Source: a virus
Lineage: Duplodnaviria; Heunggongvirae; Uroviricota; Caudoviricetes
IMG/VR virus record: IMGVR_UViG_3300037418_003161
Location: 172,420-236,419 of that record
Length of the DNA: 64,000 bases
Reading direction: 5' to 3' (one strand)
Shown here: positions 12,901 through 56,252 of the stretch, one piece after another
Layout of the letters: each line of letters opens with the position of its first letter
How positions within the stretch are numbered: position 1 is the first letter of the stretch
The notes under the pieces: generated by a model
The model's database searches: none
Seen by the model: only the letters and a program-made list of their open reading frames with translations
What the model was told of the DNA's origin: nothing
Made by a program: the position numbers and the translations under genes

Positions 12901-13335
12901 ATTTACATCCAAGACATTGTTAAACAGGTTAGCAAGTGTATTTTTTATACGTTTTGATTCTGAAAAAATTGAAAGAATGTGTCCCTTCTCACTTGGCGTG
13001 GTGGCTTCCTCTGCATAAATGTCCAAAGCAGCAGAAATTTCCGGGGTATACTCCATTGATTCATAATCGAAATATGCCGATAAACGGGTGGTTTCATAAA
13101 CGGTTGATTTGTTATACAACTCATTATCAATCTTCACCCATTTATCCAGAAGGTATTTGGATTGTTGGAGTTCCAACTTTTTCGTGTCGTACTCCTGTTT
13201 GTTATATGTTCTTAATAATTCCTGTGCATTCAGATTGTACGTGTGTTCAGGCTCTTGGGGTTGCTGTATGGAAGCACCACCCCTCCTCAACATCTTGGTT
13301 AGCTTCTGAAGTACGGTTAAATTGTTTTCAGCCAT
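9952..13335 (-). CDS. Portal protein, T4 gp20-like, interrupted by an intein; Gly/Pro/Ala-rich C-terminal low-complexity segment
   Basis: 1127 aa. N-terminal ~350 aa and the post-insertion segment are portal-like by size and synteny. A ~473 aa insertion begins with Cys in ...SPIETLPGA/CIALDTKIPLLDG (Hint block A). Confidence 0.78.
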   Translation of the reverse strand: MAENNLTVLQKLTKMLRRGGASIQQPQEPEHTYNLNAQELLRTYNKQEYDTKKLELQQSKYLLDKWVKIDNELYNKSTVYETTRLSAYFDYESMEYTPEISAALDIYAEEATTPSEKGHILSIFSESKRIKNTLANLFNNVLDVNTNLQMWGRNMCKYGDNFLYLKIDPEKGVVGCYQLPNVEIERLEGEAYKNSTANMVQKVEIKDKDDLAARQVKFRWKDKNMDFQPWEIAHFRLLGDDRKLPYGTSMLDKCRRIWKQLLLAEDAMLIYRTSRAPERRVFKVFVGNMDDSDVEQYVQRVANRFKRDQIADQRNGNVDTRYNQMAVDQDFFIPVRDPSQASPIETLPGACIALDTKIPLLDGRTLELKDIIKEWDEGNRNLWVYSCDPKTGKFIPLPITWAGVTRKNTQVLKITLDNGESVTATPDHKFLTRLGEKKEAKDLVVGESLMPLNLRNEVLYRRNNYSKDYKQVWDNEKGKWLWVHKEVAKFYRHKLVQKYIHKKNEENTFSVIHHKDVNRFNNNPTNLCFMGYSDHLKYHADNLHIASQAYSEKYANDENFRNAVNERLKRGQETFHNKRKSDINFHQEISKKQSEGLKNYINSLNEEQLNESFERLKQYATVENIQPMLEWCKNEENLKAKGKKISKAFTNDRKQQHSERTKNNWKNSEFRKKVLKNQTLIFSDEIYRWYVREFEKTGRADLTLNVLNNTPEFLKLFKTINGEISSPLSNLSEFTHNHVVKMLKQRGFRNYREWLVKESESRGYKNVRAWRYYIDKEQGISQRRKFFNHKIIAIEWLEEKQDTGTITVDGNELYSNAHTFGIQCGIYIFNSNLGEIADIEYIQKKMLAALRIPKAFLGFEEVVGEGKGLSLMDIRFARTINRIQKSLIQELNKIAIIHLYLLGLEDELDNFTLGLTNPSTQSDLLKIEQWKEKILLYKDAVGDGQSIAPVSHTFAKKYFLGMSDEEVKLDLQQQKVERGIAEELNNSKDIKTGIFNKINQLYSSGENPAGGDSADAGGASGGGGGGGSMSLPDLGGDMGGGAEEAPPEETGGGEAAPPTGAAAPPATGGEQAPPEEEETQPAAPLSEQRLGKLLDMKNEKEGFIFDLDKGRQKLNEIADELDDLLNE
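10867..12285 (-). mobile_element. Intein (Hint domain with embedded HNH endonuclease) within the portal gene
   Basis: N-terminal splice junction Cys codon at 12283-12285 (CIALDTKIPLLDGRT). HNH motif VIHHKDVNRFNNNPTNLCFMGYSDHLKYHADN. C-terminal block ITVDGNELYSNAHTFGIQ/CG resembles Hint block G but ends in Gln (10867-10869) followed by Cys, non-canonical. Boundaries approximate. Confidence 0.6.
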
Positions 13336-22179: not shown

Positions 22180-22920
22180 CTATTGTTCCAAAGACAATTG
22201 CTTATCAAGAATTTCGTTCTTTAAATCCAATAGCTTTTTTATGTATTCGTTTCTGCGTAAATACTTAAAGACCAAGTTTTCGTAGGAAAATTCCCCACCT
22301 TCGTCCAATCCGCATTGCCGAAACTTCTTGAGGCGTTCCCGCACTCTTTCCACTCTTGCCAAAATCCCCTCATCGTTTTTGTGTTTAATGAGTTCATCAA
22401 TTACATCCATCCACGAATCCACCTTGTCTTTGATTTGCTTTTTATCGATTTTTACCCGGTGTTTTTCCGGCTCAATAATCCACTTGTTGTTGAGAACTGA
22501 ATAGACCCCGGAAGAATCGTGTTTCTCATGTATGTCCTGTACATAGATTTCACAATCATACCCTTTGATTTTAATGGCATGTTGGGAATTCCATATCACC
22601 TTTTTGGCATCAAAGAATTCTTTTAAAAGAGTTAGGTCGTGTTTGGATTCAGCAAAATCGATTACCACATGCAAGTCCACATCCGAGTACTTTGACCAGT
22701 TGTAATTGGCAAGACTGCCAGTTAGGATAATGTCGTGGATAAAAAATTTCACTCCCATGAATTCAATGAACTTATCGGCCACATGCAGCAGGGCGTTGCG
22801 AACATCTTTTTTGAGAACGTGGGTATCTCCCTCGGTATCAAAGATTTCGGGGTTCATTTCACTTTTTACCTTGAAGGAATCCAAAATGGTATCTTCATTA
22901 ATCTGTTGGAGTGTTATCAT
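22180..22920 (-). CDS. Nucleotidyltransferase-fold protein (pol-beta superfamily, KNTase-like size)
   Basis: 246 aa. LTGSLANYNWSKYSDVDLHVVIDF matches the minimal NTase signature hG[GS]-x(9-13)-DhD; a later acidic residue sits in KGYDCEIYVQD. Confidence 0.55.
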   Translation of the reverse strand: MITLQQINEDTILDSFKVKSEMNPEIFDTEGDTHVLKKDVRNALLHVADKFIEFMGVKFFIHDIILTGSLANYNWSKYSDVDLHVVIDFAESKHDLTLLKEFFDAKKVIWNSQHAIKIKGYDCEIYVQDIHEKHDSSGVYSVLNNKWIIEPEKHRVKIDKKQIKDKVDSWMDVIDELIKHKNDEGILARVERVRERLKKFRQCGLDEGGEFSYENLVFKYLRRNEYIKKLLDLKNEILDKQLSLEQ

Positions 22921-24199: not shown

Positions 24200-26227
24200 A
24201 TGCCCGAATTTGATTTTGAAGACAAAGGGGATTCAAAAGGCCCTCAGAAAACTAAAGTAAAAAATTCTCCCACTCCCGTATTGGACAATTTCTCAAGGGA
24301 TTTAATCCGTTTGGCTGAACAAGGGAAATTAGACCCGGTAATTGGTCGGGATAAAGAAATTAACCGTATTGCCCAAATTCTTTCTCGAAGAAAAAAAAAC
24401 AATCCTATTATTTTGGGAGACCCCGGCATTGGAAAAACCGCAATTGTAGAAGGTTTGGCGATGAAAATCTTCCAAGGGGATTGTCCCAAAAATCTGCTGG
24501 AAAAACGCATTGTGGCTCTTGACCTGACAGCGGTGGTGGCCGGGACAAAATACCGGGGCCAGTTCGAAGAACGCATGAAAGCCATTTTGCAGGAACTCAA
24601 TGAAGTGGACAATGTGATTGTCTTCATTGATGAAATCCACACCATTTTGGGTACGGGTAACGCCTCCGGTTCATTGGACGCTTCCAATATCATGAAACCC
24701 GCATTGGCAAGGGGAGAAATCCAATGCATCGGTGCAACCACCTTGGATGAATATAGAGAAAATATTGAAAAGGATGGGGCTTTGGAAAGACGTTTTTTAA
24801 AGGTCATGGTAGATGCCCCAAGCAAGGAAGAAACGCTTCAGATTCTTCACATGCTGAAGGATAAGTATGAAAACTTCCACAAGGTTAGCTATACCGATGA
24901 AGCCCTGCAAGCCACGGTGGTATTGGCCGACCGCTACATCACCGATAAGGAGTTCCCGGACAAGGCATTTGACATCATTGATGAAGTGGGGGCGAAAAAA
25001 CAAATCAACACCAAATTTCCCAAAGAAATTGAAGACCTGAAAATGGAACTTCAGGAAATCAAGGATAGGAAGTTGGAGGTGGTGAAAAGCCAGAAATATG
25101 AAGAAGCGGCCCAACTGCGTGACCAAGAAAAGAAGGTTAAAGAGCGGCTGCAAGCTGAAAAAGACCGTTGGGAAAATGAACAAAAAGCCAACCGTTTACC
25201 TGTAACAGAAGATGACATTTACACCATTATTTCAGAAATTACCAAAATCCCGGTAGCCCGGATGAACAAGGATGAACAAAAATCCCTGCTACACTTGGAA
25301 GGTGATATGAAGGCTGAAGTAATTGGACAGGACGAGGCGGTGAATAAAATTGCCAAAGCCATCCGCAGAAACCGGGTGGGTATCAAAGACCATAACCGAC
25401 CCATTGGCTCGTTCATCTTTTTGGGGTCAACGGGGGTTGGTAAAACCCATATTGCCCGGACTCTCGCCAAGCTGAATTTTGGGTCGCCCGATGCCATGAT
25501 TCGGGTGGACATGAGTGAATACATGGAGAAACATGCGGTCTCCAAAATGATTGGTTCACCACCCGGTTATGTGGGTCACGATGAAGGTGGTCAGTTAACC
25601 GAACAAGTTAAAAACAAGCCCTATTCGGTTATCCTATTTGATGAGATTGAAAAAGCCCACCGGGACACTTTCAACATTCTGTTGCAAGTTCTGGACGAAG
25701 GTCATCTGACGGATTCCAGAGGGCGCAAGGTGAATTTTAAAAACACCATCATCATCATGACTTCCAATGTGGGAGCAAGAAAGGTGGAAGACTTTGGTAA
25801 CGGCATCGGATTTCAAAGCCAAGCCAAATTGGGACAGAGCAAGGAAATTGCCAAAACCATCATCAACAAGGAACTGAAAAATAAATTCGCCCCTGAATTT
25901 TTGAACCGGGTGGACGACATTGTGATGTTCAATTCTCTTTCTGAAGATAACATTAAGCAGATTGTAACCATTGAACTCAATAAGCTGAACAAACGCCTTA
26001 AAGAGAAGAATTACAACATCCATATGGATGATTCCGTGACAACCTATATTGCCAAAAATGGGTATGATGCCAAGTTTGGCGCACGTCCCATCAAACGTGC
26101 CATTCAGGATACCATTGAAGATTATTTGTCAGAAGAAATTCTAAAGGACAATATTAAAGAAGGTGTTGGGTACAACCTATCCATATCCGTAGAAGGTGAA
26201 GTAAAAATCAAAAAAGCCGGGAAATAA
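24200..26227 (+). CDS. ClpB/ClpC-like AAA+ chaperone ATPase lacking the N-terminal domain
   Basis: 675 aa. NBD1 Walker A GDPGIGKTAIVEGLA, Walker B VIVFIDEIH. Coiled-coil middle region (KEIEDLKMELQEIKDRK...QLRDQEKKVKERLQ). NBD2 Walker A LGSTGVGKTHIARTLA, Walker B ILFDEIEKAH, sensor TIIIMTSN, and the Clp C-terminal ARPIKRAIQ motif. The protein starts directly at QGKLDPVIGRDKEI (start of NBD1). Confidence 0.9.
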   Translation: MPEFDFEDKGDSKGPQKTKVKNSPTPVLDNFSRDLIRLAEQGKLDPVIGRDKEINRIAQILSRRKKNNPIILGDPGIGKTAIVEGLAMKIFQGDCPKNLLEKRIVALDLTAVVAGTKYRGQFEERMKAILQELNEVDNVIVFIDEIHTILGTGNASGSLDASNIMKPALARGEIQCIGATTLDEYRENIEKDGALERRFLKVMVDAPSKEETLQILHMLKDKYENFHKVSYTDEALQATVVLADRYITDKEFPDKAFDIIDEVGAKKQINTKFPKEIEDLKMELQEIKDRKLEVVKSQKYEEAAQLRDQEKKVKERLQAEKDRWENEQKANRLPVTEDDIYTIISEITKIPVARMNKDEQKSLLHLEGDMKAEVIGQDEAVNKIAKAIRRNRVGIKDHNRPIGSFIFLGSTGVGKTHIARTLAKLNFGSPDAMIRVDMSEYMEKHAVSKMIGSPPGYVGHDEGGQLTEQVKNKPYSVILFDEIEKAHRDTFNILLQVLDEGHLTDSRGRKVNFKNTIIIMTSNVGARKVEDFGNGIGFQSQAKLGQSKEIAKTIINKELKNKFAPEFLNRVDDIVMFNSLSEDNIKQIVTIELNKLNKRLKEKNYNIHMDDSVTTYIAKNGYDAKFGARPIKRAIQDTIEDYLSEEILKDNIKEGVGYNLSISVEGEVKIKKAGK

Positions 26228-29925: not shown

Positions 29926-30123
29926 TTATTTGGGAGAAGTCCCAAAGCAAAAATTAAAAAATGAGAGTTCAATTAACACATAACCATATTAATCGCAACT
30001 GGCAACGCAATTGTCAGATTAGTAATGGTATGTCTAATTGGATTCCACGGAAATAACTTTTTGGTGTAAAGTAGGAGTAAAGCCCTTGGAATTCGAAAGT
30101 TTTTCAGGGGTTTTTTATTTTTA

Positions 30124-30195
30124 TGCCCTGTGGTGTAACGGCAAGCATGTAACACTCTGAATGTTACGGAACAAGTTCGAATCTTGTCAGGGCGA
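30124..30195 (+). tRNA. tRNA-Gln (anticodon CTG)
   Basis: Hand-folded cloverleaf: acceptor TGCCCTG/CAGGGCG, anticodon stem TAACA/TGTTA, loop CTCTGAA, T-arm ACAAG-TTCGAAT-CTTGT. Confidence 0.7.
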
Positions 30196-30200
30196 CACAA

Positions 30201-30272
30201 TCCCATGTGGTGTAACGCTAACATCCCACCCTTTGAAGGTGCGAGTTTCAAGTTCGAGTCTTGACATGGGAA
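30201..30272 (+). tRNA. tRNA-Gln (anticodon TTG)
   Basis: Acceptor TCCCATG/CATGGGA (7 bp), anticodon loop CTTTGAA on a 4-bp stem plus one C-C mismatch, T-arm TCAAG-TTCGAGT-CTTGA. Confidence 0.6.
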
Positions 30273-30282
30273 CAAAAAAAAT

Positions 30283-30368
30283 GGTGGATTACTCAAGCGG
30301 TTAAGAGAGCGGTTTGCTAAACCGTACAGGGTTAAAATCCTGCGTGAGTTCGATTCTCACATCCACCG
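30283..30368 (+). tRNA. tRNA-Ser (anticodon GCT), class II
   Basis: Acceptor GGTGGAT/ATCCACC, D-arm CTC...GAG with long loop, anticodon stem GCGGT/ACCGT, loop TTGCTAA, long variable arm CAGGG...CCTG, T-arm GTGAG-TTCGATT-CTCAC. Confidence 0.7.
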
Positions 30369-30373
30369 CATAC

Positions 30374-30444
30374 GTAGGTTTGGTGTAACGGTAGCATGAC
30401 GCTCTCCAAAAGCGTTGGCGGGAGTTCGAATCTCTCAATCTGCG
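30374..30444 (+). tRNA. tRNA-Trp (anticodon CCA)
   Basis: Anticodon stem ACGCT/AGCGT, loop CTCCAAA, T-arm GGGAG-TTCGAAT-CTCTC; acceptor GTAGGTT/AATCTGC with two G-U pairs. Confidence 0.65.
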
Positions 30445-30448
30445 CAAT

Positions 30449-30706
30449 ATGAAAGGACAATTTGAAGAAATTATCAAGAAGCTCAAACTCAGAAGTGAGT
30501 TGATGAGCAAACGATATTCAAACATTGTTACTCCAAGCGGAATTAAGATTATACGGATTGTTCAGAGTCTTATTGACGAAGATGTTGTTCTAATTCATAT
30601 TAAATGGAGTTACAAAGACGGTATTCCCAATTTTGAGGAATTGCAGAAATACCAAAACGAATGTTTGAAATATTGGAATGTGAAGACTGAAATAAGACGA
30701 GTATAA
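30449..30706 (+). CDS. Hypothetical protein
   Basis: 85 aa ORF directly after the tRNA cluster. Confidence 0.35.
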   Translation: MKGQFEEIIKKLKLRSELMSKRYSNIVTPSGIKIIRIVQSLIDEDVVLIHIKWSYKDGIPNFEELQKYQNECLKYWNVKTEIRRV

Positions 30707-30743
30707 TACATTGGGGATGTAGCTCAAAGGAAGAGCGGCACTT

Positions 30744-30815
30744 TGTTAAAGTGAAGGTTGAGATATCGTAATTCTCCATCCCCGCAAACCCGAAACTTTT
30801 TCCCTATAGGGCAGT
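30744..30815 (+). tRNA. tRNA-Asn-like (anticodon GTT) with atypical T-arm; possible pseudogene
   Basis: Perfect acceptor GGGGATG/CATCCCC, D-arm GCTC/GAGC, anticodon loop TTGTTAA on a 4-bp stem. T-loop reads ATCGTAA and the T-stem has a T-T mismatch. Confidence 0.45.
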
Positions 30816-30869
30816 ATAGGGATAGATGCTGCCACATCGAAAAGAGGGAGTAGGGAAAGTTATTAACAT

Positions 30870-30941
30870 GGTGTATGAAGCTTTAAGGTGAAGCACTTGG
30901 TTGTGGGCCAAGGGAAGTCGGTTCGATACCGTCCTTACACC
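30870..30941 (+). tRNA. tRNA-His (anticodon GTG) with G-1
   Basis: Extra 5' G at 30870 opposite discriminator C (His hallmark). Acceptor GTGTATG/CTTACAC, anticodon stem CTTGG/CCAAG, loop TTGTGGG, T-loop TTCGATA. Confidence 0.7.
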
Positions 30942-30953
30942 CAAATTATTTTT

Positions 30954-31241
30954 ATGAATAAGGAACAGAAAATTAGATTGGCTGACATGCTTTTGGAATT
31001 TGTAAGCAACAATCAGGAAGACAGGGTGAATCTGCCCCGGATGGTTGGAACACTTACAAAGGCCCAAGGTCTGAACGGCTTTAAACGTGCTGAAATTGGA
31101 ACACCCGTTTTTGATATTGGTGACAAATATATGATAATGATTGAAAGCCTTGATGGTAATAGAAATGTTGAGGTAACTTATTATAAAGATACATTGAAAC
31201 CTGTCATTGAGTTTGATGGTGAAGCAAAAGTTATTTCATAA
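30954..31241 (+). CDS. Hypothetical protein
   Basis: ATG 30954 (MNKEQKIRLADML...) just after tRNA-His; ORF-track start 30888 lies inside the tRNA. Confidence 0.35.
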   Translation: MNKEQKIRLADMLLEFVSNNQEDRVNLPRMVGTLTKAQGLNGFKRAEIGTPVFDIGDKYMIMIESLDGNRNVEVTYYKDTLKPVIEFDGEAKVIS

Positions 31242-31278
31242 AAGGTAGACTTTCAACTTTGGAAGAACTTAATAATAA

Positions 31279-31357
31279 TGGCGTGTATAGAGCCATCCTG
31301 ATGAGATGGATATTCTTAGCGGTATTGAAAACGTGGGTTCGAATCCCACCACGCCAA
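31279..31357 (+). tRNA. Non-canonical tRNA-like gene (hairpin loop CTGATGA would give anticodon GAT, Ile)
   Basis: Perfect acceptor TGGCGTG/CACGCCA and T-arm GTGGG-TTCGAAT-CCCAC. The body has only one clean hairpin (CCATC-CTGATGA-GATGG) plus 5 nt before and 23 nt after it; no standard D-arm. Confidence 0.35.
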
Positions 31358-31371
31358 CCAAGGGAACAGGT

Positions 31372-31396
31372 AGTGGTTCGACTCCACTCAGGCATA
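31372..31396 (+). ncRNA. Isolated tRNA 3'-half-like element (T-arm AGTGG-TTCGACT-CCACT plus 7 nt)
   Basis: Canonical T-arm with no matching 5' acceptor half within 90 nt upstream. Confidence 0.3.
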
Positions 31397-31444
31397 GATT
31401 CTACGTTTGTAGCATTTGATGGTAGTGCAGTTCCCGCCTTTTAT

Positions 31445-31526
31445 GGCCCCGTAACAGCACCGTCTTCGAAACGGTACGCATTGTAATGGAAGGAAGATGT
31501 GAGTTCGACCCTCACCGGGGCTTCCA
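31445..31526 (+). tRNA. Non-canonical tRNA-like gene with encoded CCA (hairpin loop CTTCGAA would give anticodon TCG, Arg)
   Basis: Acceptor GGCCCCG/CGGGGCT, discriminator T, then CCA. T-arm GTGAG-TTCGACC-CTCAC. Body architecture mirrors 31279-31357: 5 nt, then hairpin ACCGT-CTTCGAA-ACGGT, then 23 nt. Confidence 0.35.
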
Positions 31527-31531
31527 AAGTT

Positions 31532-31556
31532 GTAGGTTCGAGTCCTACTCAGTCTG
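31532..31556 (+). ncRNA. Isolated tRNA 3'-half-like element (T-arm GTAGG-TTCGAGT-CCTAC plus 7 nt)
   Basis: Second T-arm-only element, immediately after the preceding tRNA-like gene and before a T-run. Confidence 0.3.
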
Positions 31557-31580
31557 CGATTTTTTATTTATCTTTGTTCC

Positions 31581-31940
31581 ATGAAAACCATTGTTGAACA
31601 AATGATTGAGGCCGGGTATAGGAAATTTACACCATCCTCATATTATCACGCCAAAGAAGCGTATCAGGCTCGCATCAGGGATGAAGTTGGAACTCGGTAT
31701 TTTATAACTTGTTACATTTACAATTTCAGTGATTTAGCACAGGAGCCACAAGAGGATAGTTACAGCTTTGAGGTTCAGTATGATAGTCACGGAAATCAAA
31801 CATTTGATGTGAGAAGGGGTGGGTGGTTTGGGCCGAATAAGTGGAACCATCCATATTTAACACTCCGGGAAATTGAAGATTTTTTCGGTCTCATTTGGGA
31901 AACAACTGGACGATTGTATTATGAAAAAGATGAATATTAA
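31581..31940 (+). CDS. Hypothetical protein
   Basis: 119 aa; ATG follows the promoter motif TTATTTATCTTTGTTCC. Confidence 0.45.
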   Translation: MKTIVEQMIEAGYRKFTPSSYYHAKEAYQARIRDEVGTRYFITCYIYNFSDLAQEPQEDSYSFEVQYDSHGNQTFDVRRGGWFGPNKWNHPYLTLREIEDFFGLIWETTGRLYYEKDEY

Positions 31941-31950
31941 ATTTATAAAG

Positions 31951-32035
31951 GGGTAGTTGGTCGAGTGGTCGATGGCGGCAGTCTGCAAAACTGTTGGGAG
32001 CAATCCCCGCACAGGTTCGAATCCTGTACTACCCT
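31951..32035 (+). tRNA. tRNA with Cys anticodon GCA and U73 but a class II (long variable arm) body
   Basis: Perfect acceptor GGGTAGT/ACTACCC, Ser-like D-arm GTC-GAGTGGTCGAT-GGC, anticodon stem GCAGT/ACTGT, loop CTGCAAA. 16-nt variable arm GGGA-GCAA-TCCC (GNRA loop). T-arm ACAGG-TTCGAAT-CCTGT, discriminator T. Confidence 0.6.
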
Positions 32036-32036
32036 C

Positions 32037-32456
32037 ATGGATTATTTCACATTAGAATATGCAAACCGACATATTCCCCGGAATCGGCAACGGGGAATAC
32101 GGCATTATTTTAAAGGGAAAAGTTATTTTGATTTTGTTGGAAATGAATATAAAATCAAAGATGTGATATTTTTTGAAAGAACATCAATCGTGTGTCCACA
32201 TACTGATATCATTTTTGATTATGAATATATTCAACATAGTTTTAAGATTTCTACCTATACGCCCATCGTTGAGCGGATAAAATACATCATAAAGACATAT
32301 TCATTTTGGGAAGTTCCCAACTGCACCATTTACTTCGGAATTGACACCCTTTCCTTACACCATCAAAAACGTGCCGTTGAAAATTATTATATTGATGAAC
32401 AATTAAAAAAAGAAAAATTTATTTCAGGACTCCCAAATCTTTTTTATCGTGGATAA
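32037..32456 (+). CDS. Hypothetical protein
   Basis: First ATG after the tRNA (MDYFTLEYANRH...); ORF-track start 31965 lies inside the tRNA. Confidence 0.4.
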   Translation: MDYFTLEYANRHIPRNRQRGIRHYFKGKSYFDFVGNEYKIKDVIFFERTSIVCPHTDIIFDYEYIQHSFKISTYTPIVERIKYIIKTYSFWEVPNCTIYFGIDTLSLHHQKRAVENYYIDEQLKKEKFISGLPNLFYRG

Positions 32457-32748
32457 AATGGTAGAAATATTAAGAACTTTGTATCAGGGCAAGTGGGTTA
32501 AGGGACATTATATTGAGGCGATTGCAAGAGAGAAAGTTATTAACAGAAATTATATTTATATTCTTTCCCAAAGAATTTCAACACTGACTATAAGCGGGGA
32601 TGAGGAAACTGTGAGATATTTTGAACACGTCATTGTAAAATATTTTGATGAAAGAAATTTGGTTTGGTTGGTTTTTGATGCTGATTATTTCAATCAAATT
32701 GCAAACCACCCCCCGGTTAAACGAAATGATGGAATTTATAGTTGTTAA
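32449..32748 (+). CDS. Hypothetical protein
   Basis: 99 aa ORF. Confidence 0.35.
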   Translation: MDKMVEILRTLYQGKWVKGHYIEAIAREKVINRNYIYILSQRISTLTISGDEETVRYFEHVIVKYFDERNLVWLVFDADYFNQIANHPPVKRNDGIYSC

Positions 32749-33593
32749 ATAATTCCCATCTTATCTAATAGTTCTCCCAAATTCTTTGAATCCGTTCTCC
32801 CTGATTTTGAGGCAATGAAATAAGATTTATAATCTTTTGCGCTATCAAACAGTAAATCTTCATATTTTTCAAATTTCTCATGCTTCATACTGTAATTAAC
32901 CTGATATTCGCATTCCACCCCAAAATATGAATTAAGACTGTCCACGCTAGTGATAAAACCTTCATCCCTGTTTTTAAATAATACTACCCTGATATTACTA
33001 TTTATCTCAATAATCAAAATAATCGCCGGAGAAAAATGTTTAAATGCTGTTTCAATGAATTTAAGAAATATGGATTTATTCAATTTAAAATTTTCTTCCT
33101 GTTCCTGCAACTGGTCGGTCTTATCGTTGTGATGGAGGTATTTGATTGAAACAAGAACATCATATGAGGGAATTCCAAGTTTCTGACAGATGTCCTCTGC
33201 TTTCTCTTGTGTGGTTTCTCTGATTATTCTTACCCAAGGAGTATTGGGTTCTATATACGAATAGAATTCCCCAAATTCTTTGAGGTCGATATTGGGTTCG
33301 TATTCAATCTCACCATAAACATTTAAAAATTTAGCAGTAACAACTCCCTTTACTTCTACCTCGAAAATAACCACATGGCCATCTGTGTGAACGTCTACGT
33401 ACTCAAAAACAATTTTATATTTTTCATCATCAAAAGCATCACTCTCCCACATATACACTTCATCAGCTATAAACTTCTTCAGGTAATTAATTTTTTTATC
33501 ATTAACACCTTTATCCATTTCAATCAGGAGACGGTCATAATAATTTAATTCCATTCCCATAAATATCTCAATTTTTGACGTACCACCAAGCAA
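32745..33593 (-). CDS. Hypothetical protein
   Basis: 282 aa ORF. Confidence 0.45.
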   Translation of the reverse strand: MLGGTSKIEIFMGMELNYYDRLLIEMDKGVNDKKINYLKKFIADEVYMWESDAFDDEKYKIVFEYVDVHTDGHVVIFEVEVKGVVTAKFLNVYGEIEYEPNIDLKEFGEFYSYIEPNTPWVRIIRETTQEKAEDICQKLGIPSYDVLVSIKYLHHNDKTDQLQEQEENFKLNKSIFLKFIETAFKHFSPAIILIIEINSNIRVVLFKNRDEGFITSVDSLNSYFGVECEYQVNYSMKHEKFEKYEDLLFDSAKDYKSYFIASKSGRTDSKNLGELLDKMGII

Positions 33594-34284
33594 TCAATTC
33601 TTCCATCCGTTGAGTGGAGTAATCTTTTGGGAGAGCCAAGGGTTGACCCACTAAATATGCTGGAATTCCCATACTCTGTGATGCCAGTTGTTTTGTCCAC
33701 GCTATCAATGCTTGCAGAGCCGCATATTTGCTTTCCAGATGGGGTTTATACCTGTTTTTTGTAAAACTAATGGTATAATCGCTATAAAAGACCATATCTG
33801 TTGGCAACCCCATAGGTTGAACACCCACCAAATTAGCGTCTATCACTTGGGCCTTAACTCTTCGAATAGATGGATACACCACATCCTCAAACACAAAAGG
33901 ATTAACGTAAGCGATTTTCCAGTTGTCAAAGTAAAATATGGATGAGCCATTTCGCAGATAAAACGTATGATAACCGAAGTATTGAATAAGCCGGGCTACA
34001 AACTTTGCTTCCTCAACATGGTCAAAACTTGAATTACCACAAAACACCACCAATTTTCCTTCGTTATCAATGGAAAATTCTTTTATCGTTGTATAAAAAA
34101 CAAGACCATGATAGGTTTTTTCAATGGAATAGGTTCTACCTTCAAACCGCTTTTTGATTTCCAAAAATCTTTTTTCACTACGGAATCTTGTAGTACTTTC
34201 AGGTAGGAGTAACATAGCTGAATTGTAAAAAAAATATTTTATAAAGTCAAACTGCTTTAGCTTTGTTTCATATACTAAAACCAA
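33568..34284 (-). CDS. Hypothetical protein
   Basis: 238 aa ORF. Confidence 0.45.
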   Translation of the reverse strand: MVLVYETKLKQFDFIKYFFYNSAMLLLPESTTRFRSEKRFLEIKKRFEGRTYSIEKTYHGLVFYTTIKEFSIDNEGKLVVFCGNSSFDHVEEAKFVARLIQYFGYHTFYLRNGSSIFYFDNWKIAYVNPFVFEDVVYPSIRRVKAQVIDANLVGVQPMGLPTDMVFYSDYTISFTKNRYKPHLESKYAALQALIAWTKQLASQSMGIPAYLVGQPLALPKDYSTQRMEELIAWWYVKN

Positions 34285-38207: not shown

Positions 38208-39164
38208 ATGTCAATTACATCCATCGTTGTTCTGGCAATAAGCGGAATAGTGGGCCTTGCGCTTATCGTTAGCTTATTTCAATCATTCTTCACTGTAAAA
38301 CAGGGAACTGTAGCTGTTGTTACACGGCTTGGCAAGTTTCATAAAATTTGTACTACCGGGCTGAATTTCAAAGTCCCTTATATTGATAGCCTCCTTGGGG
38401 TTATTTCCTTACAAAACAGGTCGGCCTCGGTTGCGTTTCAGTCCATAACTTCTGACCAAGCCAACGTGTATTTCAACGCTATGTTGTTGTATTCAGCCAC
38501 AAATAGTGACGAGGATACCATTAAAAACATCGCCTTCAAATTCCGCACTGAACAGGAGTTCGCCTCTACTCTGCAAAGAACCATTGAAGGAGCGGTACGG
38601 GCATACGTGGCAACCAAAAAACAAGCGGAGGTGCTTACCCTCAGACGAGAAATTGTTGACCATGTAAAGGCCGAATTGGATGGTACACTACACAGTTGGG
38701 GCTATCATCTGTCGGATTTACAAATCAATGATATCACATTTGACAAGGCTATCATGGATTCGATGAGCAAAGTAGTAGCCTCCAATAATCTAAAAGCCGC
38801 CGCAGAAAATGAAGGTCAGGCGTTGTATATTCAAAAGACCAAGGCTGCGGAAGCGGAAGGGCAAGCCATTAAAATTCAAGCCGAAGCCGAGGCTACTGCC
38901 GCCCAACTACGGGGACAAGGGGTTGCCAAGTTCCGGGAAGAAGTGGCGAAGGGCCTAACCCAATCGGCTGAAATGTTGCATTCCGCTAATATGGATACCA
39001 ACGTTATCATGTTCAGCATGTGGACGGAAGCCATCAAAAACTTTGCGGAATACGGTAAGGGGAATGTTATCTTTTTGGATGGTTCAGCCCAAGGGATGGA
39101 CAATACCCTAAAGCAAATCCAAGCCATGATACAATCAAAACAGGCCGACTATGTTAATAACTGA
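38208..39164 (+). CDS. SPFH/band-7 (stomatin/prohibitin/HflKC-like) membrane protein
   Basis: 318 aa. N-terminal TM helix, FTVKQGTVAVVTRLGKF core, and an Ala/Glu-rich coiled-coil tail (AEAEGQAIKIQAEAEATAAQLRGQG) typical of the family. Confidence 0.82.
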   Translation: MSITSIVVLAISGIVGLALIVSLFQSFFTVKQGTVAVVTRLGKFHKICTTGLNFKVPYIDSLLGVISLQNRSASVAFQSITSDQANVYFNAMLLYSATNSDEDTIKNIAFKFRTEQEFASTLQRTIEGAVRAYVATKKQAEVLTLRREIVDHVKAELDGTLHSWGYHLSDLQINDITFDKAIMDSMSKVVASNNLKAAAENEGQALYIQKTKAAEAEGQAIKIQAEAEATAAQLRGQGVAKFREEVAKGLTQSAEMLHSANMDTNVIMFSMWTEAIKNFAEYGKGNVIFLDGSAQGMDNTLKQIQAMIQSKQADYVNN

Positions 39165-39636
39165 TGATTTTGTTTTCTTCTATAAATCATTCTATTCGCA
39201 ATGGAAAATTGCGCCAGTAAGAATTGATGGAAGAACCTACAACTGCTCTGAACAATACATGATGCATAGGAAAGCCACTTTGTTTGAGGATTGGGAAACC
39301 GCAGATAAAATCATGAAAGCAGAACACCCAAGAGACCATCAGTCTCTTGGGCGTACTGTTAAAAATTTTAATCAGGAAGTATGGAACGCCAATGCAAGGG
39401 AAATTGTGTATCAGGCAAACCTAGCCAAGTATATGCAGCACGAAGATATGCGAAAAGAAATGCTGGCAACCGGGAATAGAAAATTTGTTGAAGCTTCCCC
39501 CACTGATATCATATGGGGTGTTGGTCTTGGTGAAAAAGACCCTTTAATCGTTGACCCCAAAAATTGGAGAGGAACAAACTGGTTGGGACAAGCATTGGAT
39601 AGAGTGAAAGCAACTTTGTTACAGACCAAGAATTAA
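39151..39636 (+). CDS. NADAR (YbiA/DUF1768) domain protein
   Basis: 161 aa. FFYKSFYSQW...IDGRTYNCSEQYMMHRKA...KFVEASPTDIIWGVGLG matches the YbiA/NADAR hallmarks (F.Y.S..SNF, SEQ(Y/F), E.SP.D..WG.G). Confidence 0.78.
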   Translation: MLITDDFVFFYKSFYSQWKIAPVRIDGRTYNCSEQYMMHRKATLFEDWETADKIMKAEHPRDHQSLGRTVKNFNQEVWNANAREIVYQANLAKYMQHEDMRKEMLATGNRKFVEASPTDIIWGVGLGEKDPLIVDPKNWRGTNWLGQALDRVKATLLQTKN

Positions 39637-43599: not shown

Positions 43600-44401
43600 A
43601 ATGAAACAACAAGCAATCGCAATCAGCCGGGGTCTCGTTACCCCTTTTGATAAAATCAACAAACAGGTCTTCTTGATGACTTTGTTGATTGAATGGTTTT
43701 TAATCCTAACGGTGTGGCAAATCAACGGGGGTGCTTTGATTCCAAAGCCACTGGCAATCTTGGAGAAACTCTTCAACGTATTTCAGACCGAAGATTTCAT
43801 CCAGAATTTGCTTACCAGTTTAATTTTGACGTTAAAGGCCATTTTCTTTGGTACAATCATATCCTTGGTTTTTGCCTATGGGTATAAAATCGGCGTATTA
43901 AAGCCTTTTGTGCAGTTCATAATTGTTTTAAGATATCTTCCCCTCACTGGAATCATTTTCATATTTACCCTGTTGACCAGTAATGGGGGAAACTTAAAAC
44001 TCATTCTTTTGTTATTTGGAATTGTTCCCTTTTTTGTTACTTCCATGGTATCGTTAATTGATGACATCAACCCGCAATTATACGACCTGTGTAAGACCCT
44101 GCGCATGAATCGGTGGCAAACCCTTAGAAGGGTGGTAATTGTCGGCCAATTCAATTATGTGTTTGAAGTGATGCGGCAGAACTTTGCCATTTGTTGGTTG
44201 ATGATAACCATGGTGGAAGGACTCTCCATGTCGGAAGGGGGAATTGGAACAATGCTGATTAAGCAAAATAAAACCTTGGAACTGGAATATGTTTTTGCCA
44301 TTCAAGTGACCCTGTTTTTGTTGGGTTTGGCCTTTGATGCCGGACTAAAGGCTCTGAGAAATTACCTGTTCAAATTTGTTCCACTTCAAAAAGCCAAATA
44401 A
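43592..44401 (+). CDS. ABC transporter permease (NitT/TauT-type, six TM)
   Basis: 269 aa, six hydrophobic helices; EAA-like cytoplasmic loop LRMNRWQTLRRVVIVGQ; ATGA overlap with the ATPase gene. Confidence 0.78.
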   Translation: MSKMKQQAIAISRGLVTPFDKINKQVFLMTLLIEWFLILTVWQINGGALIPKPLAILEKLFNVFQTEDFIQNLLTSLILTLKAIFFGTIISLVFAYGYKIGVLKPFVQFIIVLRYLPLTGIIFIFTLLTSNGGNLKLILLLFGIVPFFVTSMVSLIDDINPQLYDLCKTLRMNRWQTLRRVVIVGQFNYVFEVMRQNFAICWLMITMVEGLSMSEGGIGTMLIKQNKTLELEYVFAIQVTLFLLGLAFDAGLKALRNYLFKFVPLQKAK

Positions 44402-45210
44402 TGCCTTACGAAATAGCAGAAACACTTTTGAAAGCCGAGAACCTTTCAAAAACCTATGGCAACAAGCTTGTCATCCGGGATGTGTCTTTTGAAATCAAAA
44501 ACGTTACAAGACCGGGCCTGACCCAAGGTCAAATCCTGTCCCTTATCGGGGCATCGGGTGTGGGGAAATCCACTATCTTTCGGATGCTGGCCGGGCTGGA
44601 AACACCCACAAGCGGTCAAATAAAAGTGTGTATGGGACAAGGACAGGAGCTAAAACCTGTTCGTGAGGGAGATATGGGCGTGGTGTTTCAAAACTACATC
44701 ATGTTTGATGACCTGACCATCCGGGAGAACTTCAAGGTGGCATTGAAATATCGGCCCAACGCCAAAAACATTGATGCCAAAGCCTTTATTGATGCGTACT
44801 CAACGGAATTCAATCTGAGCCAACATTTGGATAAATACCCTTGTCAGCTTTCGGGGGGTCAACGCCAACGAGCGGCCATCATTGTTCAACTCTTAAATGG
44901 GTCTCCGTTTCTGCTGTTGGATGAACCCCTCTCCGGCTTGGATGTTCTGATGATTGATAAAATCACATCGCTTCTTGTCAAAATATCATTGGCCGACGAA
45001 TACCAAACCATCATCATTGTTTCCCACGATTTGGAGAACTGCCTTGCCATTTCTGATACGGCTTTCATCATTGGATTGGAAGCAGGGAAAGAAGGTGCAA
45101 TTCTGAAGGGAACAATTGACCTGATGCAAAGAGACTTGGCATGGCATCCTGATATTAAAGACCTTCCTCGTTTTAGGGATACACTAAAGGAAGTGAAGGC
45201 GATGCTATAA
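44401..45210 (+). CDS. ABC transporter ATP-binding protein
   Basis: 269 aa. Walker A GASGVGKST, signature LSGGQRQRAAI, Walker B LLLDEPLSGLD, H-loop IIVSHD. Confidence 0.9.
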   Translation: MPYEIAETLLKAENLSKTYGNKLVIRDVSFEIKNVTRPGLTQGQILSLIGASGVGKSTIFRMLAGLETPTSGQIKVCMGQGQELKPVREGDMGVVFQNYIMFDDLTIRENFKVALKYRPNAKNIDAKAFIDAYSTEFNLSQHLDKYPCQLSGGQRQRAAIIVQLLNGSPFLLLDEPLSGLDVLMIDKITSLLVKISLADEYQTIIIVSHDLENCLAISDTAFIIGLEAGKEGAILKGTIDLMQRDLAWHPDIKDLPRFRDTLKEVKAML

Positions 45211-46534: not shown

Positions 46535-47656
46535 ATGAAAGCAAGCATCGTTTTGGGACTTGGATTTGGAGACGAGGGAAAGGGTATAACAACCGACTTC
46601 CTCTGCTCCAATTCCGATAATCCCATTGTTGTAAGATTTTCAGGTGGACAACAAGCCGGACACACCGTTGTAAAAAATGGTGTCCGGCATATTCATTCCA
46701 GTTATGGAAGCGGCACTCTCCGGGGTGTTCCTTCTTATTTTAGTGAACACACCACTATGTATTTGAACAGCCTTGTTAATGAACGAGAAGTTCTTTTACA
46801 AAAAGGGATTACCCCGGAACTGTACCTACATCCGCTTACCATGGTAACAACACCTTATGATGTTGCGTATAACAGGCTGATGGAAGAGAAAATAAAGCAT
46901 GGGTCATGCGGGTTAGGTATTGCGGCCACCATGAAGCGCAACTTGGAAACCGGGTATAAATTGTATGCGGTGGATTTGAAATATCCGTCTGTTTATAAGC
47001 AAAAAATTGAAGCTATAAAAAAATACTATAGCGGTAAGGTAATGCTTCACGACCAACTGGACTATATTCGCTTGTATGATTATGCGGAAGATTATTTCTT
47101 TGAAAACCTTGAGCGAAAAGACCTTTTCCAAGTTGAGGACTATTCATGTTTGTATGGATATGACCACATCATTTTTGAAGGGTCGCAGGGAATATTATTG
47201 GATATGAATCATGGTTTTTTCCCCAATGTAACCTACGCCAACACCACAAGTAAAAATGTTTTGGAAATTTACAATAAGCTTTCAGGTCACAAAATACCAC
47301 CTCAAATCTATTATGTCACCCGGTGTTACCAAACACGGCATGGCCGGGGGTGGATGAGTAATGAACAGAACTTGGGCCTCGTCAACAATAAAAAGGAAAC
47401 CAATGTCACCAACAACTGGCAGGAGAATTTCCGGGTAGGAGAAATCGACTACGACCTGATTAATTATGCCTTGGACGTGGACAGTATTTATTCCAAGAAT
47501 CTTGTTAAAAAACTGGTGGTAACATGTCTTGACCAACGCCCCGGATTTCAGTTTGACTACACGAAACTCAAATACAGTTTCAAAAGGTATTTGGAATCCC
47601 GCTCAGATGAAACAAAATTAGTCCCTAATAAAAACCAGTATGCTGCAAGCCATTAA
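46535..47656 (+). CDS. purA: Adenylosuccinate synthetase-like protein (PurA family; short, archaeal/PurZ-sized)
   Basis: 373 aa. P-loop GLGFGDEGKGITTD and GGQQAGHTV match the PurA GDEGKGK and GNNAGHT motifs. Shorter than the ~430 aa bacterial PurA. Confidence 0.82.
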   Translation: MKASIVLGLGFGDEGKGITTDFLCSNSDNPIVVRFSGGQQAGHTVVKNGVRHIHSSYGSGTLRGVPSYFSEHTTMYLNSLVNEREVLLQKGITPELYLHPLTMVTTPYDVAYNRLMEEKIKHGSCGLGIAATMKRNLETGYKLYAVDLKYPSVYKQKIEAIKKYYSGKVMLHDQLDYIRLYDYAEDYFFENLERKDLFQVEDYSCLYGYDHIIFEGSQGILLDMNHGFFPNVTYANTTSKNVLEIYNKLSGHKIPPQIYYVTRCYQTRHGRGWMSNEQNLGLVNNKKETNVTNNWQENFRVGEIDYDLINYALDVDSIYSKNLVKKLVVTCLDQRPGFQFDYTKLKYSFKRYLESRSDETKLVPNKNQYAASH

Positions 47657-51950: not shown

Positions 51951-52038
51951 GGGGCTATGGTGTAACTGGCTAAACATCCCATCCTTACAAGATGGAGACG
52001 AGAAGTATTTAATCCCGGTTCGAGTCCGGGTGGCCCTA
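51951..52038 (+). tRNA. tRNA with Val anticodon TAC and an unusually long (18 nt) variable region
   Basis: Acceptor GGGGCTA/TGGCCCT, anticodon stem CCATC/GATGG (perfect), loop CTTACAA, T-arm CCCGG-TTCGAGT-CCGGG. 18 nt (AGACGAGAAGTATTTAAT) lie between the anticodon stem and T-stem with no clear helix. Confidence 0.5.
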
Positions 52039-52085
52039 CGATTGGTTTTTGCACGTTTTAAACTTAATGGAAAAATGTGTTTTAT

Positions 52086-52169
52086 AGGGTAGTAATCGGT
52101 AAATGGAAGCCGTCCACATTTGGGATGTGGGGTCATAGTACGCTGCAAGTTCGAGTCTTGTCTACCCTA
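52086..52169 (+). tRNA. tRNA-Pro (anticodon TGG) with extended 14-nt variable region
   Basis: Acceptor AGGGTAG/CTACCCT, anticodon stem CCACA/TGTGG, loop TTTGGGA, T-arm GCAAG-TTCGAGT-CTTGT, variable GGTCATAGTACGCT. Confidence 0.55.
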
Positions 52170-52248
52170 CGAAAGTGAACTTAAACAGTCAATCGAAGTT
52201 CTCATGGCCTACAGGGTGCGCTATAGATTGACGAACGAGGTGATGTAG

Positions 52249-52620: not shown

Positions 52621-52998
52621 GTGTATCGCATTAATCATTTGTTTGATAATAGAAACCTTCCAATGACGGATATTATTAAATGGGATGAGTCGTTTGAAAG
52701 ACTGAAAAGATTACATGAGTTCTTTTACCCAAACATAAAAGAAGGGTATTGTAATTTTCGTAGTAGTGGTGGGGAAAATTTAGAGGTTTATAATAGTGTC
52801 ACATTGTTTGTGCCGAATAATGTTTCGGTAAGGAAATATATACAACATGTGGCAAAAACATATTTTAATCTTCTTCCGGCTGTTTGCACTCCAAGTCAAG
52901 GAAATATTTGGTGGTTATTTAAAAACATTCGTAACCCAAACCATGAATTAGTAATTGGGAGGGTGACTCATGAAGATTTTGGTCGCAATAAATTTTAA
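52621..52998 (+). CDS. Hypothetical protein
   Basis: 125 aa ORF (start may be the internal ATG at 52665). Confidence 0.35.
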   Translation: MYRINHLFDNRNLPMTDIIKWDESFERLKRLHEFFYPNIKEGYCNFRSSGGENLEVYNSVTLFVPNNVSVRKYIQHVAKTYFNLLPAVCTPSQGNIWWLFKNIRNPNHELVIGRVTHEDFGRNKF

Positions 52999-53002
52999 AA
53001 TT

Positions 53003-54321: not shown

Positions 54322-54554
54322 CAGCAGCCGAATTGATTATCCTTTTGGAACAACTGCCTCCCGACACAAGAATATTCACCAGTGGATATGAAGGGGGATT
54401 CGATGATGCACTCAAACCAGTTAAAATAGAGGAGTTTGCCTTAAACTATTATACCGCATGGTATTATGGTGAACATGAATTGTTAAACGGGGAAGAGGAC
54501 AAAGCGGAGGCGATTAATAGACGATGTGAAATTGTAAAAGGAGTGGTGATATGA
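54318..54554 (+). CDS. Hypothetical protein
   Basis: 78 aa, ATGA-coupled to neighbours. Confidence 0.35.
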   Translation: MTAAELIILLEQLPPDTRIFTSGYEGGFDDALKPVKIEEFALNYYTAWYYGEHELLNGEEDKAEAINRRCEIVKGVVI

Positions 54555-56159: not shown

Positions 56160-56247
56160 GGGCGTATGGCGCAAAAGGTAGCGCATCTCACTTTTAATGA
56201 GAGGGGTAGACGTAAGTCCGTTCAGGGTTCGAATCCCTGTGCGCCCA
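56160..56247 (+). tRNA. tRNA-Lys (anticodon TTT) with a 20-nt variable arm
   Basis: Acceptor GGGCGTA/TGCGCCC, D-arm GCGC/GCGC, anticodon stem TCTCA/TGAGA (perfect), loop CTTTTAA, variable GGGGTAGACGTAAGTCCGTT (GAC-GTAA-GTC mini-helix), T-arm CAGGG-TTCGAAT-CCCTG. Confidence 0.6.
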
Positions 56248-56252
56248 CAACA

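Follow-up and report, generated by a model that had tools for sequence, protein, structure and literature searches.

We analysed a 64,000-nucleotide (nt) stretch of the IMG/VR virus record IMGVR_UViG_3300037418_003161 (Duplodnaviria; Heunggongvirae; Uroviricota; Caudoviricetes; positions 172,420 to 236,419), hereafter termed the window, with focus on a tRNA-Cys(GCA) gene with a long variable arm. The gene lies on the plus strand and extends from position 1 of the tRNA at 31951 to the discriminator nucleotide U73 at 32035, as found by ARAGORN, by Rfam and by direct reading. ARAGORN called tRNA-Cys(gca) at 31951-32036 (86 nt, the last of them a trailing C), and the general tRNA model of Rfam (RF00005) matched 31951-32035 with 54.2 bits, the gathering score being 29 (E=7e-9 over the whole window and 2e-11 locally), which places the gene among tRNAs. 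One overlapping and lower-scoring member of the same Rfam clan was dropped in favour of the general tRNA model. Neither ARAGORN nor Rfam proposed another anticodon for the gene. The feature is a real tRNA gene, well above chance.

The 5' acceptor strand GGGUAGU (31951..31957) forms seven Watson-Crick pairs with ACUACCC (32028-32034) and is followed by U8 and G9. The D-arm GUCGAGUGGUCGAUGGC (17 nt, 31960..31976) has a stem of 3-4 base pairs (bp) and a loop of 9-11 nt, and is of a consensus type common to class I phage tRNA-Cys and tRNA-Ser. The anticodon stem is GCAGU/ACUGU. Both ARAGORN and Rfam placed the anticodon GCA (31985..31987) in the loop CUGCAAA (31983-31989), which had a high posterior probability in the RF00005 alignment. 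The variable region, U-GGGA-GCAA-UCCC-CGC (16 nt, 31995..32010), consists of one unpaired nucleotide, a 4-bp stem (GGGA at 31996-31999 and UCCC at 32004-32007) closed by the GNRA loop GCAA (32000-32003), and the unpaired CGC, an arrangement referred to below as the 1/3 register. The T-arm ACAGG-UUCGAAU-CCUGU (32011..32027) was found by direct reading as well as by ARAGORN and Rfam, and direct reading gave the discriminator at 32035 as U73, a major determinant for cysteinyl-tRNA synthetase (CysRS). Position 32036 is a C and 32037 is the A of a downstream ATG start, so the gene ends U73-C-A and CCA is incompletely encoded. A single-sequence thermodynamic fold recovered the acceptor, the T-arm and the variable-arm hairpin. 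An initial annotation of this DNA had described a 7-bp acceptor, a D-arm, a 16-nt variable region with a helix and a T-arm, all of which were found in place, and it had rightly singled out the GCA anticodon and U73 as CysRS determinants.

By the textbook account a long variable arm in bacteria is confined to the tRNAs for leucine, serine, tyrosine and selenocysteine (Sec), and it is regarded as a key feature by which seryl- and leucyl-tRNA synthetase (SerRS and LeuRS) discriminate among tRNAs. The window tRNA-Cys does not have the class I architecture with a variable loop of 4-5 nt, its variable region being 16 nt long with a 4-bp helix. To find similar genes, the viral contigs of IMG/VR were scanned for CTGCAAA followed after 19-31 nt by GGTTCGAATCC, a spacing that is possible only with a long variable region. 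Among the 120 viral loci listed ARAGORN identified 91 tRNA-Cys(GCA) genes of 81-93 nt, many of them on contigs of 100-500 kb. Members of this family have a variable region of 11-22 nt with a helix of 3-5 bp and a total length of 81-93 nt, and among the matches listed GCA was found in all and U73 in 89 of 92. The window gene has the features that define the family: an acceptor/T branch of 7/5, GCA, U73, a helical arm mostly in the 1/3 register and a location in a phage tRNA array. When one genome per bacterial or archaeal species was searched with the same pattern, 8 of the 120 loci listed contained a long tRNA-Cys, and 6 of these 8 lay in arrays of 4-29 tRNAs within at most 8 kb; these six copies look like phage or mobile-element DNA.

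To obtain a sample unbiased with respect to length the spacing was opened to 11-31 nt, so that both classes match. The long form made up 13 of 110 (12%) phage tRNA-Cys genes in this sample, and the other 97 were ordinary class I tRNAs, in agreement with the initial view that a long helical variable arm is unusual for a tRNA-Cys. The long genes resemble class I tRNA-Cys(GCA) in the CUGCAAA loop, U73, the G15:C48 Levitt pair, the GAGUGG..AA D-arm, the 7/5 branch and similar 2:71 and 3:70 pairs. They differ in the variable region, which is a loop of 4-6 nt in the class I tRNA (total length about 71-78 nt) and a region of 11-22 nt with a helix in the long form (81-93 nt).

The family is widespread in phages and extends to cultured ones. 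In the phiCbK group, 31 GenBank records, covering phiCbK, Magneto, Karma, Swift, Rogue, Colossus, CcrPW and Brevundimonas phages, contain a tRNA-Cys(GCA) of 85-89 nt with U73 and an encoded CCA, kept at 80-100% identity; in phiCbK itself (JX100813) the gene lies at 101969-102057. These genes are annotated as plain tRNA-Cys in 27 records and have no feature in 4. The portions of the phiCbK genome paper that concern tRNAs list them as tRNAscan-SE calls and do not remark on their structure (PMC3556154). A full-text literature search, the coverage of which was incomplete, found no published description of a 7/5 long-arm tRNA-Cys in phages or of a wider phage pattern. The family has apparently gone unremarked, although its genes are already in GenBank as "tRNA-Cys".

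Two groups of candidates were rejected as members. The annotated 86-nt "tRNA-Cys" of Flavobacterium phage immuto (L242, MW353175, 2323-2408) is a weak tRNA match (32.3 bits) and had no clear CUGCAAA loop; about 32 nt stand in place of a normal anticodon arm, and the gene may carry an intron or be mis-annotated. BLAST hits labelled "tRNA-Ser" in cyanophages, Erwinia phages, ACP17 and Vid5 were considered as mislabelled long tRNA-Cys, but were found to be true tRNA-Ser with anticodon UGA or GCU, G73 and 1/1 arm flanks.

Pair counts were made on a gap-free alignment of 14 distinct family members, all with a D-arm of 17 nt and a variable region of 16 nt. Standard pairs occupied 95.8% of the cells, compared to 34-44% when the partners were slid. 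All five helices covaried, including all 7 acceptor pairs, and all 4 pairs of the variable stem had changed on both sides (GGGA/UCCC, GGUA/UACC, UCUC/GAGA, GAAU/AUUC, UCGU/ACGA). In orthologues from the phiCbK group the arm switches between GGC/GCC, CGC/GCG and GGUG/CACC. Since compensatory substitutions keep the arm helical, it is under selection in the phage family. That the window gene could be a decaying pseudogene or a chance tRNA-like fold has practically no probability: its unusual length, and nothing else, speaks for this, while the score of 54.2 bits against a cutoff of 29, the perfect cloverleaf, the covariation in all five helices and the 80-100% identity kept across the phiCbK group speak against it. 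A covariance model built for the family (R1) also captured tRNA-Ser, tRNA-Tyr and other tRNAs, and its 150-row alignment (A3), being a mixture, was left out of the pair counts. It was replaced by an alignment-free register test, in which we recorded where three consecutive pairs begin at the base of the arm, as the number of unpaired nucleotides on the 5' and 3' side.

Class II identities are told apart, among other features, by how many bases are left unpaired at the foot of the arm (PMC9976931). Register (1,3) was found for 0.48 of the long tRNA-Cys and 0.57 of the phage tRNA-Tyr among the matches listed. Register (1,1), present in 0.63 of phage tRNA-Ser, was found in 0.05 of long tRNA-Cys, and register (0,1), present in 0.73 of phage tRNA-Leu, in 0.06. 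The window copy has one unpaired nucleotide, 4 bp and three unpaired nucleotides, and is of the tyrosine type (1/3) rather than in the serine-type orientation. The variable stem measures 3-5 bp in long tRNA-Cys, 4-7 bp in tRNA-Ser and 3-4 bp in tRNA-Tyr. In the acceptor, G2:C71 was found in 73 of 78 phage tRNA-Ser compared to 14 of 92 long tRNA-Cys, and A3:U70 in 65 of 78 compared to 18 of 92, again among the matches listed; the window copy has G1:C72 and G2:C71, but G3:C70. The preferences of long tRNA-Cys at pairs 2:71 and 3:70 follow class I tRNA-Cys and not tRNA-Tyr.

The 17-nt D-arm consensus is gc.GAGtGGttgAA.Gc for long tRNA-Cys, gc.GAGtgGtc.AA.Gc for class I phage tRNA-Cys and gc.GAGtGG.ttAa.gc for tRNA-Ser. 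Because class I phage tRNA-Cys has the GAGUGG..AA consensus too, a D-arm of "Ser type" is not diagnostic. The rest of the body was compared by sequence profiles from which the variable region, the anticodon loop, the pattern-constrained T-loop and the discriminator had all been removed; this masked version was used since the unmasked comparison is biased, both tRNA-Cys sets having been fetched with the same loop and T-loop pattern. Among the matches listed 50 of 65 unique long tRNA-Cys scored best against the class I tRNA-Cys profile, and the mean body scores were 15.9 bits for class I tRNA-Cys, 12.1 for tRNA-Ser and 5.0 for tRNA-Tyr. The nucleotides flanking the hairpin (^) were mostly N^YRC in long tRNA-Cys, with U^CAC the commonest; class I tRNA-Cys variable loops, mostly NUAC, match these flanks, and tRNA-Tyr had N^UUC. 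A GNRA loop caps 19 of 58 long tRNA-Cys arms and 0 of 45 tRNA-Tyr arms among the matches listed.

The "Ser-like" chimeric body proposed in the initial annotation did not stand, given the (1,3) register, the rarity of the serine acceptor pairs in the family, a D-arm that is common to class I tRNA-Cys, and the 50 of 65 bodies of the cysteine type. Bacterial tRNA-Ser does have a long helical arm that is often GNRA-capped and the same type of D-arm, and the window copy shares G1:C72 and G2:C71 with it, but tRNA-Ser differs in its 1/1 register, stems of 4-7 bp, G73 (85%) and conserved G2:C71 plus A3:U70. Judged from these comparisons, the simplest reading of the origin of the family would be a hairpin inserted after the first nucleotide of the 4-5-nt variable loop of a class I tRNA-Cys.

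The shared register suggests another origin, namely a class II tRNA-Tyr in which GUA changed to GCA and A73 to U73; this concerns origin only, and Cys decoding would stay. Register (1,3) is about as frequent in the long tRNA-Cys as in phage tRNA-Tyr (0.48 and 0.57), the stems are similarly short (3-4 bp in tRNA-Tyr), the anticodons GUA and GCA are one transition apart, the window copy begins G1-G2-G3 like most phage tRNA-Tyr, and long tRNA-Asn and tRNA-Trp score equally on the tyrosine profile and on that of their own class I isoacceptor. Bacterial tRNA-Tyr nevertheless has A73 and U35, a 3' flank of UUC where long tRNA-Cys has YRC, and no GNRA loops (0 of 45 against 19 of 58), and its body profile fits the long tRNA-Cys poorly, with a mean score of 5.0 bits against 15.9 for class I tRNA-Cys, on which 50 of 65 scored best. 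The 2:71 and 3:70 pairs of long tRNA-Cys are also like those of class I tRNA-Cys. We regard descent from tRNA-Tyr as unlikely, and as a weaker alternative than hairpin insertion.

The main determinants for CysRS are U73 and GCA, and in minihelices U73 is by itself enough for Cys identity (PMC9976931). A73, which is needed by tyrosyl-tRNA synthetase (TyrRS) and LeuRS, and U35, which is needed by TyrRS, are both absent from the window copy, which has U73 and C35. It also lacks the serine discriminator G73, found in 85% of tRNA-Ser. Furthermore, a long-armed tRNA-Cys of another kind, selC* tRNA-Cys, is charged by a CysRS (PMC5389517).

Both a long and a short tRNA-Cys(GCA) were found on three phage contigs (L351, L006 and L011). 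On L351 (IMGVR_UViG_3300033067_002106, 463-625) a long gene of 85 nt and a short gene of 73 nt form a tandem pair with a gap of 5 nt; the two differ widely in their stems, both have U73, and the D-arm at L351 is the closest to that of the window gene among the matches listed. Since a different charge would make every Cys codon ambiguous, coexistence of the long and short forms argues that they carry the same amino acid.

In the window ORFs (open reading frames) Cys codons made up 0.93% of all codons, with UGU used 107 and UGC 45 times; neither these counts nor the catalytic Cys described next tell which tRNA decodes UGY. An IMPDH/GMP-reductase-like gene is located at 62265-63398, and in the active-site loop of its product, GIGNGGGC175LTT, the Cys codon is UGC. 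We take C175 to be the catalytic nucleophile, as is established for this type of enzyme. The Cys1 codon of an intein in the window, UGU, is uninformative for decoding, since Ser also works at that position.

These results bear on whether the arm makes the tRNA a substrate for SerRS, alone or together with CysRS, so that Ser would be inserted at some UGY codons as deliberate mistranslation or recoding. Ser identity depends mainly on the arm rather than on which anticodon is present (PMC9976931), the window copy has G1:C72, G2:C71 and a GNRA loop, U73 is seen in 11 of 78 phage tRNA-Ser, and the so-called allo-tRNAs that have G73 or U73 together with anticodons not belonging to Ser insert this amino acid in Escherichia coli (PMC5389517). 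Against this, the register is (1,3) and not (1,1), with 0.05 of long tRNA-Cys fitting tRNA-Ser; the variable stems are 3-5 bp compared to 4-7 bp; G2:C71 and A3:U70 were found in 14 and 18 of the 92 family members; and U73, kept in 97% of members, would have no explanation with SerRS as the target. Long and short tRNA-Cys with the same anticodon coexist, even in tandem, and UGC encodes a catalytic Cys. A dual or serine identity thus seems to us a distinctly small probability, and mis-serylation of the window tRNA is unlikely. The initial annotation had offered recoding of Cys codons and resistance to host anticodon nucleases as possible roles. The former fits poorly with the near-universal U73, the presence of long and short tRNA-Cys in the same phages and the catalytic Cys encoded by UGC, and nothing in the anticodon loop, which is the standard CUGCAAA, suggests resistance by way of a changed loop.

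Several points weigh against charging with cysteine by CysRS and against the insertion of a hairpin into a class I tRNA-Cys. The metagenomic contigs behind the family statistics were selected by a pattern among the matches listed and are in part redundant (92 genes, about 65 unique). The body of the window copy itself scored higher against tRNA-Ser (18.3 bits) than against class I tRNA-Cys (15.2) and tRNA-Tyr (10.5), and it has G1:C72, G2:C71 and a GNRA-capped arm as in many tRNA-Ser. The 11 of 78 phage tRNA-Ser with U73 mean that this nucleotide is no strict SerRS antideterminant, and it is chiefly the variable arm, not the anticodon, that sets Ser identity (PMC9976931). That CysRS would charge the long-arm tRNA-Cys is deduced from its determinants. 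The comparisons were made with phage and viral tRNA sets.

Weighing both sides we consider it probable that the gene encodes a functional tRNA-Cys that CysRS charges and whose variable loop has received a selected hairpin. The product would serve a large T4-like phage as an elongator tRNA for cysteine. It would be cut from a phage transcript shared with the flanking ORFs, its 3' end, U73-C-A in the gene, would be completed by a CCA-adding enzyme, and the host CysRS would charge it with cysteine by way of GCA and U73. The charged tRNA would then read UGC and UGU as Cys. Its sole unusual feature is the helical variable arm, probably placed after the first nucleotide of what would otherwise be an ordinary variable loop. 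With low confidence, the arm may set the phage tRNA structurally apart from the class I tRNA-Cys of the host; such a difference could affect how host factors that recognise the shape of tRNAs act on it, or it could simply serve the stability of the fold.

The closest described entity to the phage family is the selC* tRNA-Cys (Mukai et al. 2017, NAR, PMC5389517), which likewise combines U73 and GCA with a long variable arm. Its branch is 8/4 as in tRNA-Sec and its anticodon stem is longer, with anticodon UCA in some cases, whereas the phage family has a 7/5 branch and GCA throughout. It occurs in Sec-using bacteria beside selB* and cysS* (PMC5389517), whereas the phage genes lie in phage tRNA arrays. 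We therefore considered whether the window gene is itself a tRNA-Cys of this selenocysteine-tRNA-like type, working with a SelB-like factor or a dedicated CysRS. U73, GCA and the long arm are the features in common (PMC5389517), but the acceptor and T stems form a perfect 7/5 branch that is free of bulges and has no alternative pairing as 8/4, no selA, selB, selD or cysS-like ORF was found among the about 50 ORFs of the window (64 kb of genome covered), and the family is borne by phages and not derived from Sec-using anaerobes. This makes the selenocysteine-related alternative highly improbable, and membership of the selC* or Sec-like tRNAs as such is ruled out by the branch, which is 7/5 and not 8/4, 8/5 or 9/4.

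Two further groups, the allo-tRNAs and the nev-tRNAs, combine a long variable arm with the anticodon of a class I amino acid. The nev-tRNAs, from nematodes, are eukaryotic and reportedly charged with Leu (Hamashima et al. 2012). In both groups the arm overrides the anticodon, whereas in the long-arm tRNAs of phages the discriminator follows the synthetase that belongs to the anticodon. Allo-tRNAs have an 8/4 or 9/3 branch and Ser identity (PMC5389517), and the phage family has 7/5. The window tRNA is not an allo-tRNA, as it has neither the 8/4 or 9/3 branch nor the Sec-like D-arm with a long stem and a tetraloop.

Expanded variable regions are not confined to tRNA-Cys. The window itself contains, on the plus strand, a tRNA-Val(UAC) of 89 nt with an 18-nt variable region (51951..52039; ARAGORN, and Rfam with 47.6 bits), a tRNA-Lys(UUU) of 89 nt with a 20-nt variable region containing GAC-GUAA-GUC (56160..56248; ARAGORN, and Rfam with 63 bits), and a tRNA-Pro(UGG)-like gene of 85 nt (52086..52170; variable region of 14 nt, D-arm odd), which was called by ARAGORN only and is below the Rfam gathering score. 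The variable region of the tRNA-Val was found near-identical on contig L032, that of the tRNA-Lys recurs on L071, and a near-identical tRNA-Pro gene is present on L057; these three are unrelated-looking viral contigs on which the Val, Lys and Pro variable regions of the window are almost unchanged.

In the phage loci fetched here long variable regions were found on tRNAs for Asn, Thr, Val, Met, Lys, Ile, Pro, Gln, Asp, Trp and others. The discriminators of the long forms match their own class I isoacceptors (Thr U73 in 10 of 11, Asn G73 in 8 of 11, Val and Met A73 in all). The bodies of long tRNAs for Val, Lys, Pro, Gln, Asp, Glu and Met resemble those of their own class I isoacceptors; those for Asn, Thr and Trp show no clear likeness to theirs, with small numbers. 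Class I tRNAs other than tRNA-Cys were long in 9.7% of cases (56/580) in loci with a long tRNA-Cys compared to 2.0% (11/557) in loci with short tRNA-Cys only, an odds ratio of 5.3 with p = 2e-8, a p value that is optimistic since related phages are not independent. Counted by locus, 37 of 75 loci with a long tRNA-Cys had such co-occurrence compared to 10 of 64 loci with short tRNA-Cys only. The co-occurring expansions point to a lineage-level cause.

One such cause would be an adaptation, as opposed to insertions that are tolerated: certain large phages would equip a set of their own class I tRNAs (Cys most, and also Asn, Thr, Val, Lys, Met, Trp and others) with expanded arms to make it distinguishable from host tRNAs, by which they would escape host nucleases that target tRNAs or be spared when the phage itself attacks the tRNAs of the host. 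Such tRNAs would still receive the right amino acid, since it is mainly the anticodon and the discriminator that their synthetases read. We put this forward as a tentative and rather unlikely explanation. If the arm does evade host defences that target tRNAs, it would represent a new move in the arms race between phages and hosts.

Whatever the cause, the boundary between class I and class II tRNAs is routinely crossed in phages, with the long form amounting to about one eighth of the sampled phage tRNA-Cys and present in the model phage phiCbK. To a tRNA specialist a long-arm tRNA-Cys would be moderately surprising. These tRNAs offer natural test cases of how CysRS, SerRS, EF-Tu and modification enzymes face an extra arm in a non-Ser register, and they could serve as scaffolds for orthogonal tRNA engineering. 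They may also be a source of annotation errors, as heuristics based on length or on the arm may label long tRNA-Cys genes as tRNA-Ser. Caulobacter with phiCbK, and Enterobacteria with Cronobacter phage GAP31, are systems in which these questions can be tested directly.

GAP31 (L243, JN882284) has an annotated 89-nt tRNA-Asn(GUU) with G73 at 2990-3078, and its arm, c-GGGA-GCAA-UCCC-cgac, is nearly identical to that of the window tRNA-Cys. The same phage has an annotated 87-nt tRNA-Lys (2734-2820) and a normal tRNA-Cys of 74 nt. In phiCbK (L352, JX100813) an 85-nt tRNA with anticodon CAU (Met, or Ile via lysidine), U73 and the variable arm GGG-UUCG-UCC(C) was found at 3746-3830 on the minus strand, and its D-arm resembles that of the phage's own long tRNA-Cys. 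The uncultured gut phage MT835539 (L350) has at 297-387 a 91-nt tRNA-Trp(CCA) with G73, the same type of D-arm and a long variable arm, and adjoining it, at 29-113, an 85-nt tRNA that also has a long arm and that, with its anticodon UUA, may be an ochre suppressor. The L351 locus also has a long tRNA-Val(UAC) beside a short tRNA-Val(GAC), and a 90-nt tRNA-Asp.

The structural module of the window phage is of the T4 type, with a Gp23-like capsid protein, a Gp20-like portal protein that contains an intein, and a T4-type large terminase. The portal protein (1127 amino acids (aa), 9952-13335, minus strand) carries an intein of about 480 aa (Cys351 to Asn830, with Ser at +1) with an HNH homing-endonuclease domain. 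A megablast search with 30000-34000 against GenBank phages gave no match, and the phage has no close cultured relative; a host among the Bacteroidota would be no more than a guess. Its capsid protein shares at most 42% identity with any other, the nearest (37-42%) being the capsid proteins of Microcystis phage Mel-JY01, Flavobacterium phage immuto and two uncultured huge phages. The ORFs flanking the tRNA-Cys had no recognisable domains, and a Pfam scan of the about 50 window ORFs revealed neither an aminoacyl-tRNA synthetase nor an enzyme of the SelA/SepCysS type that converts Ser to Cys.

ARAGORN and Rfam found 17-18 tRNA genes in the window, arranged in several clusters. All 17 genes called by ARAGORN end with the discriminator, a C and then a non-CCA sequence, and all therefore need CCA completion. 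No CCA-adding enzyme was recognised among the about 50 window ORFs, where only a small NTP_transf_2 protein (22180-22920, minus strand) was seen.

The window also encodes a homologue of adenylosuccinate synthetase (46535-47656, plus strand) that matches phrog_1211 (PurZ-type) with E=3.6e-62, and its sequence suggests that the phage may replace adenine with 2-aminoadenine (Z-genome). Auxiliary genes that are unusual for a phage, all on the plus strand, encode a full-length ClpB-like AAA+ ATPase (24200-26227), an SPFH/Band-7 protein (38208-39164), a NADAR domain protein (39151-39636), an ABC permease plus ATPase pair (43601-45210), a Sir2-family protein without Cys residues that adjoins a tRNA cluster (52970-53689), and an R2K ATP-grasp protein (54551-55273). 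Upstream of the tRNA-Cys gene, at 31279-31357 on the plus strand, a tRNA-like element was detected by Rfam with 37.8 bits, which is above the gathering score, and was not called by ARAGORN. Its D-arm is cut to 4 nt, its anticodon loop would be CUGAUGA (GAU, Ile-like), and its 20-nt variable region contains the D-loop-like motif AGCGGUA; it could be a rearranged or degenerate tRNA.

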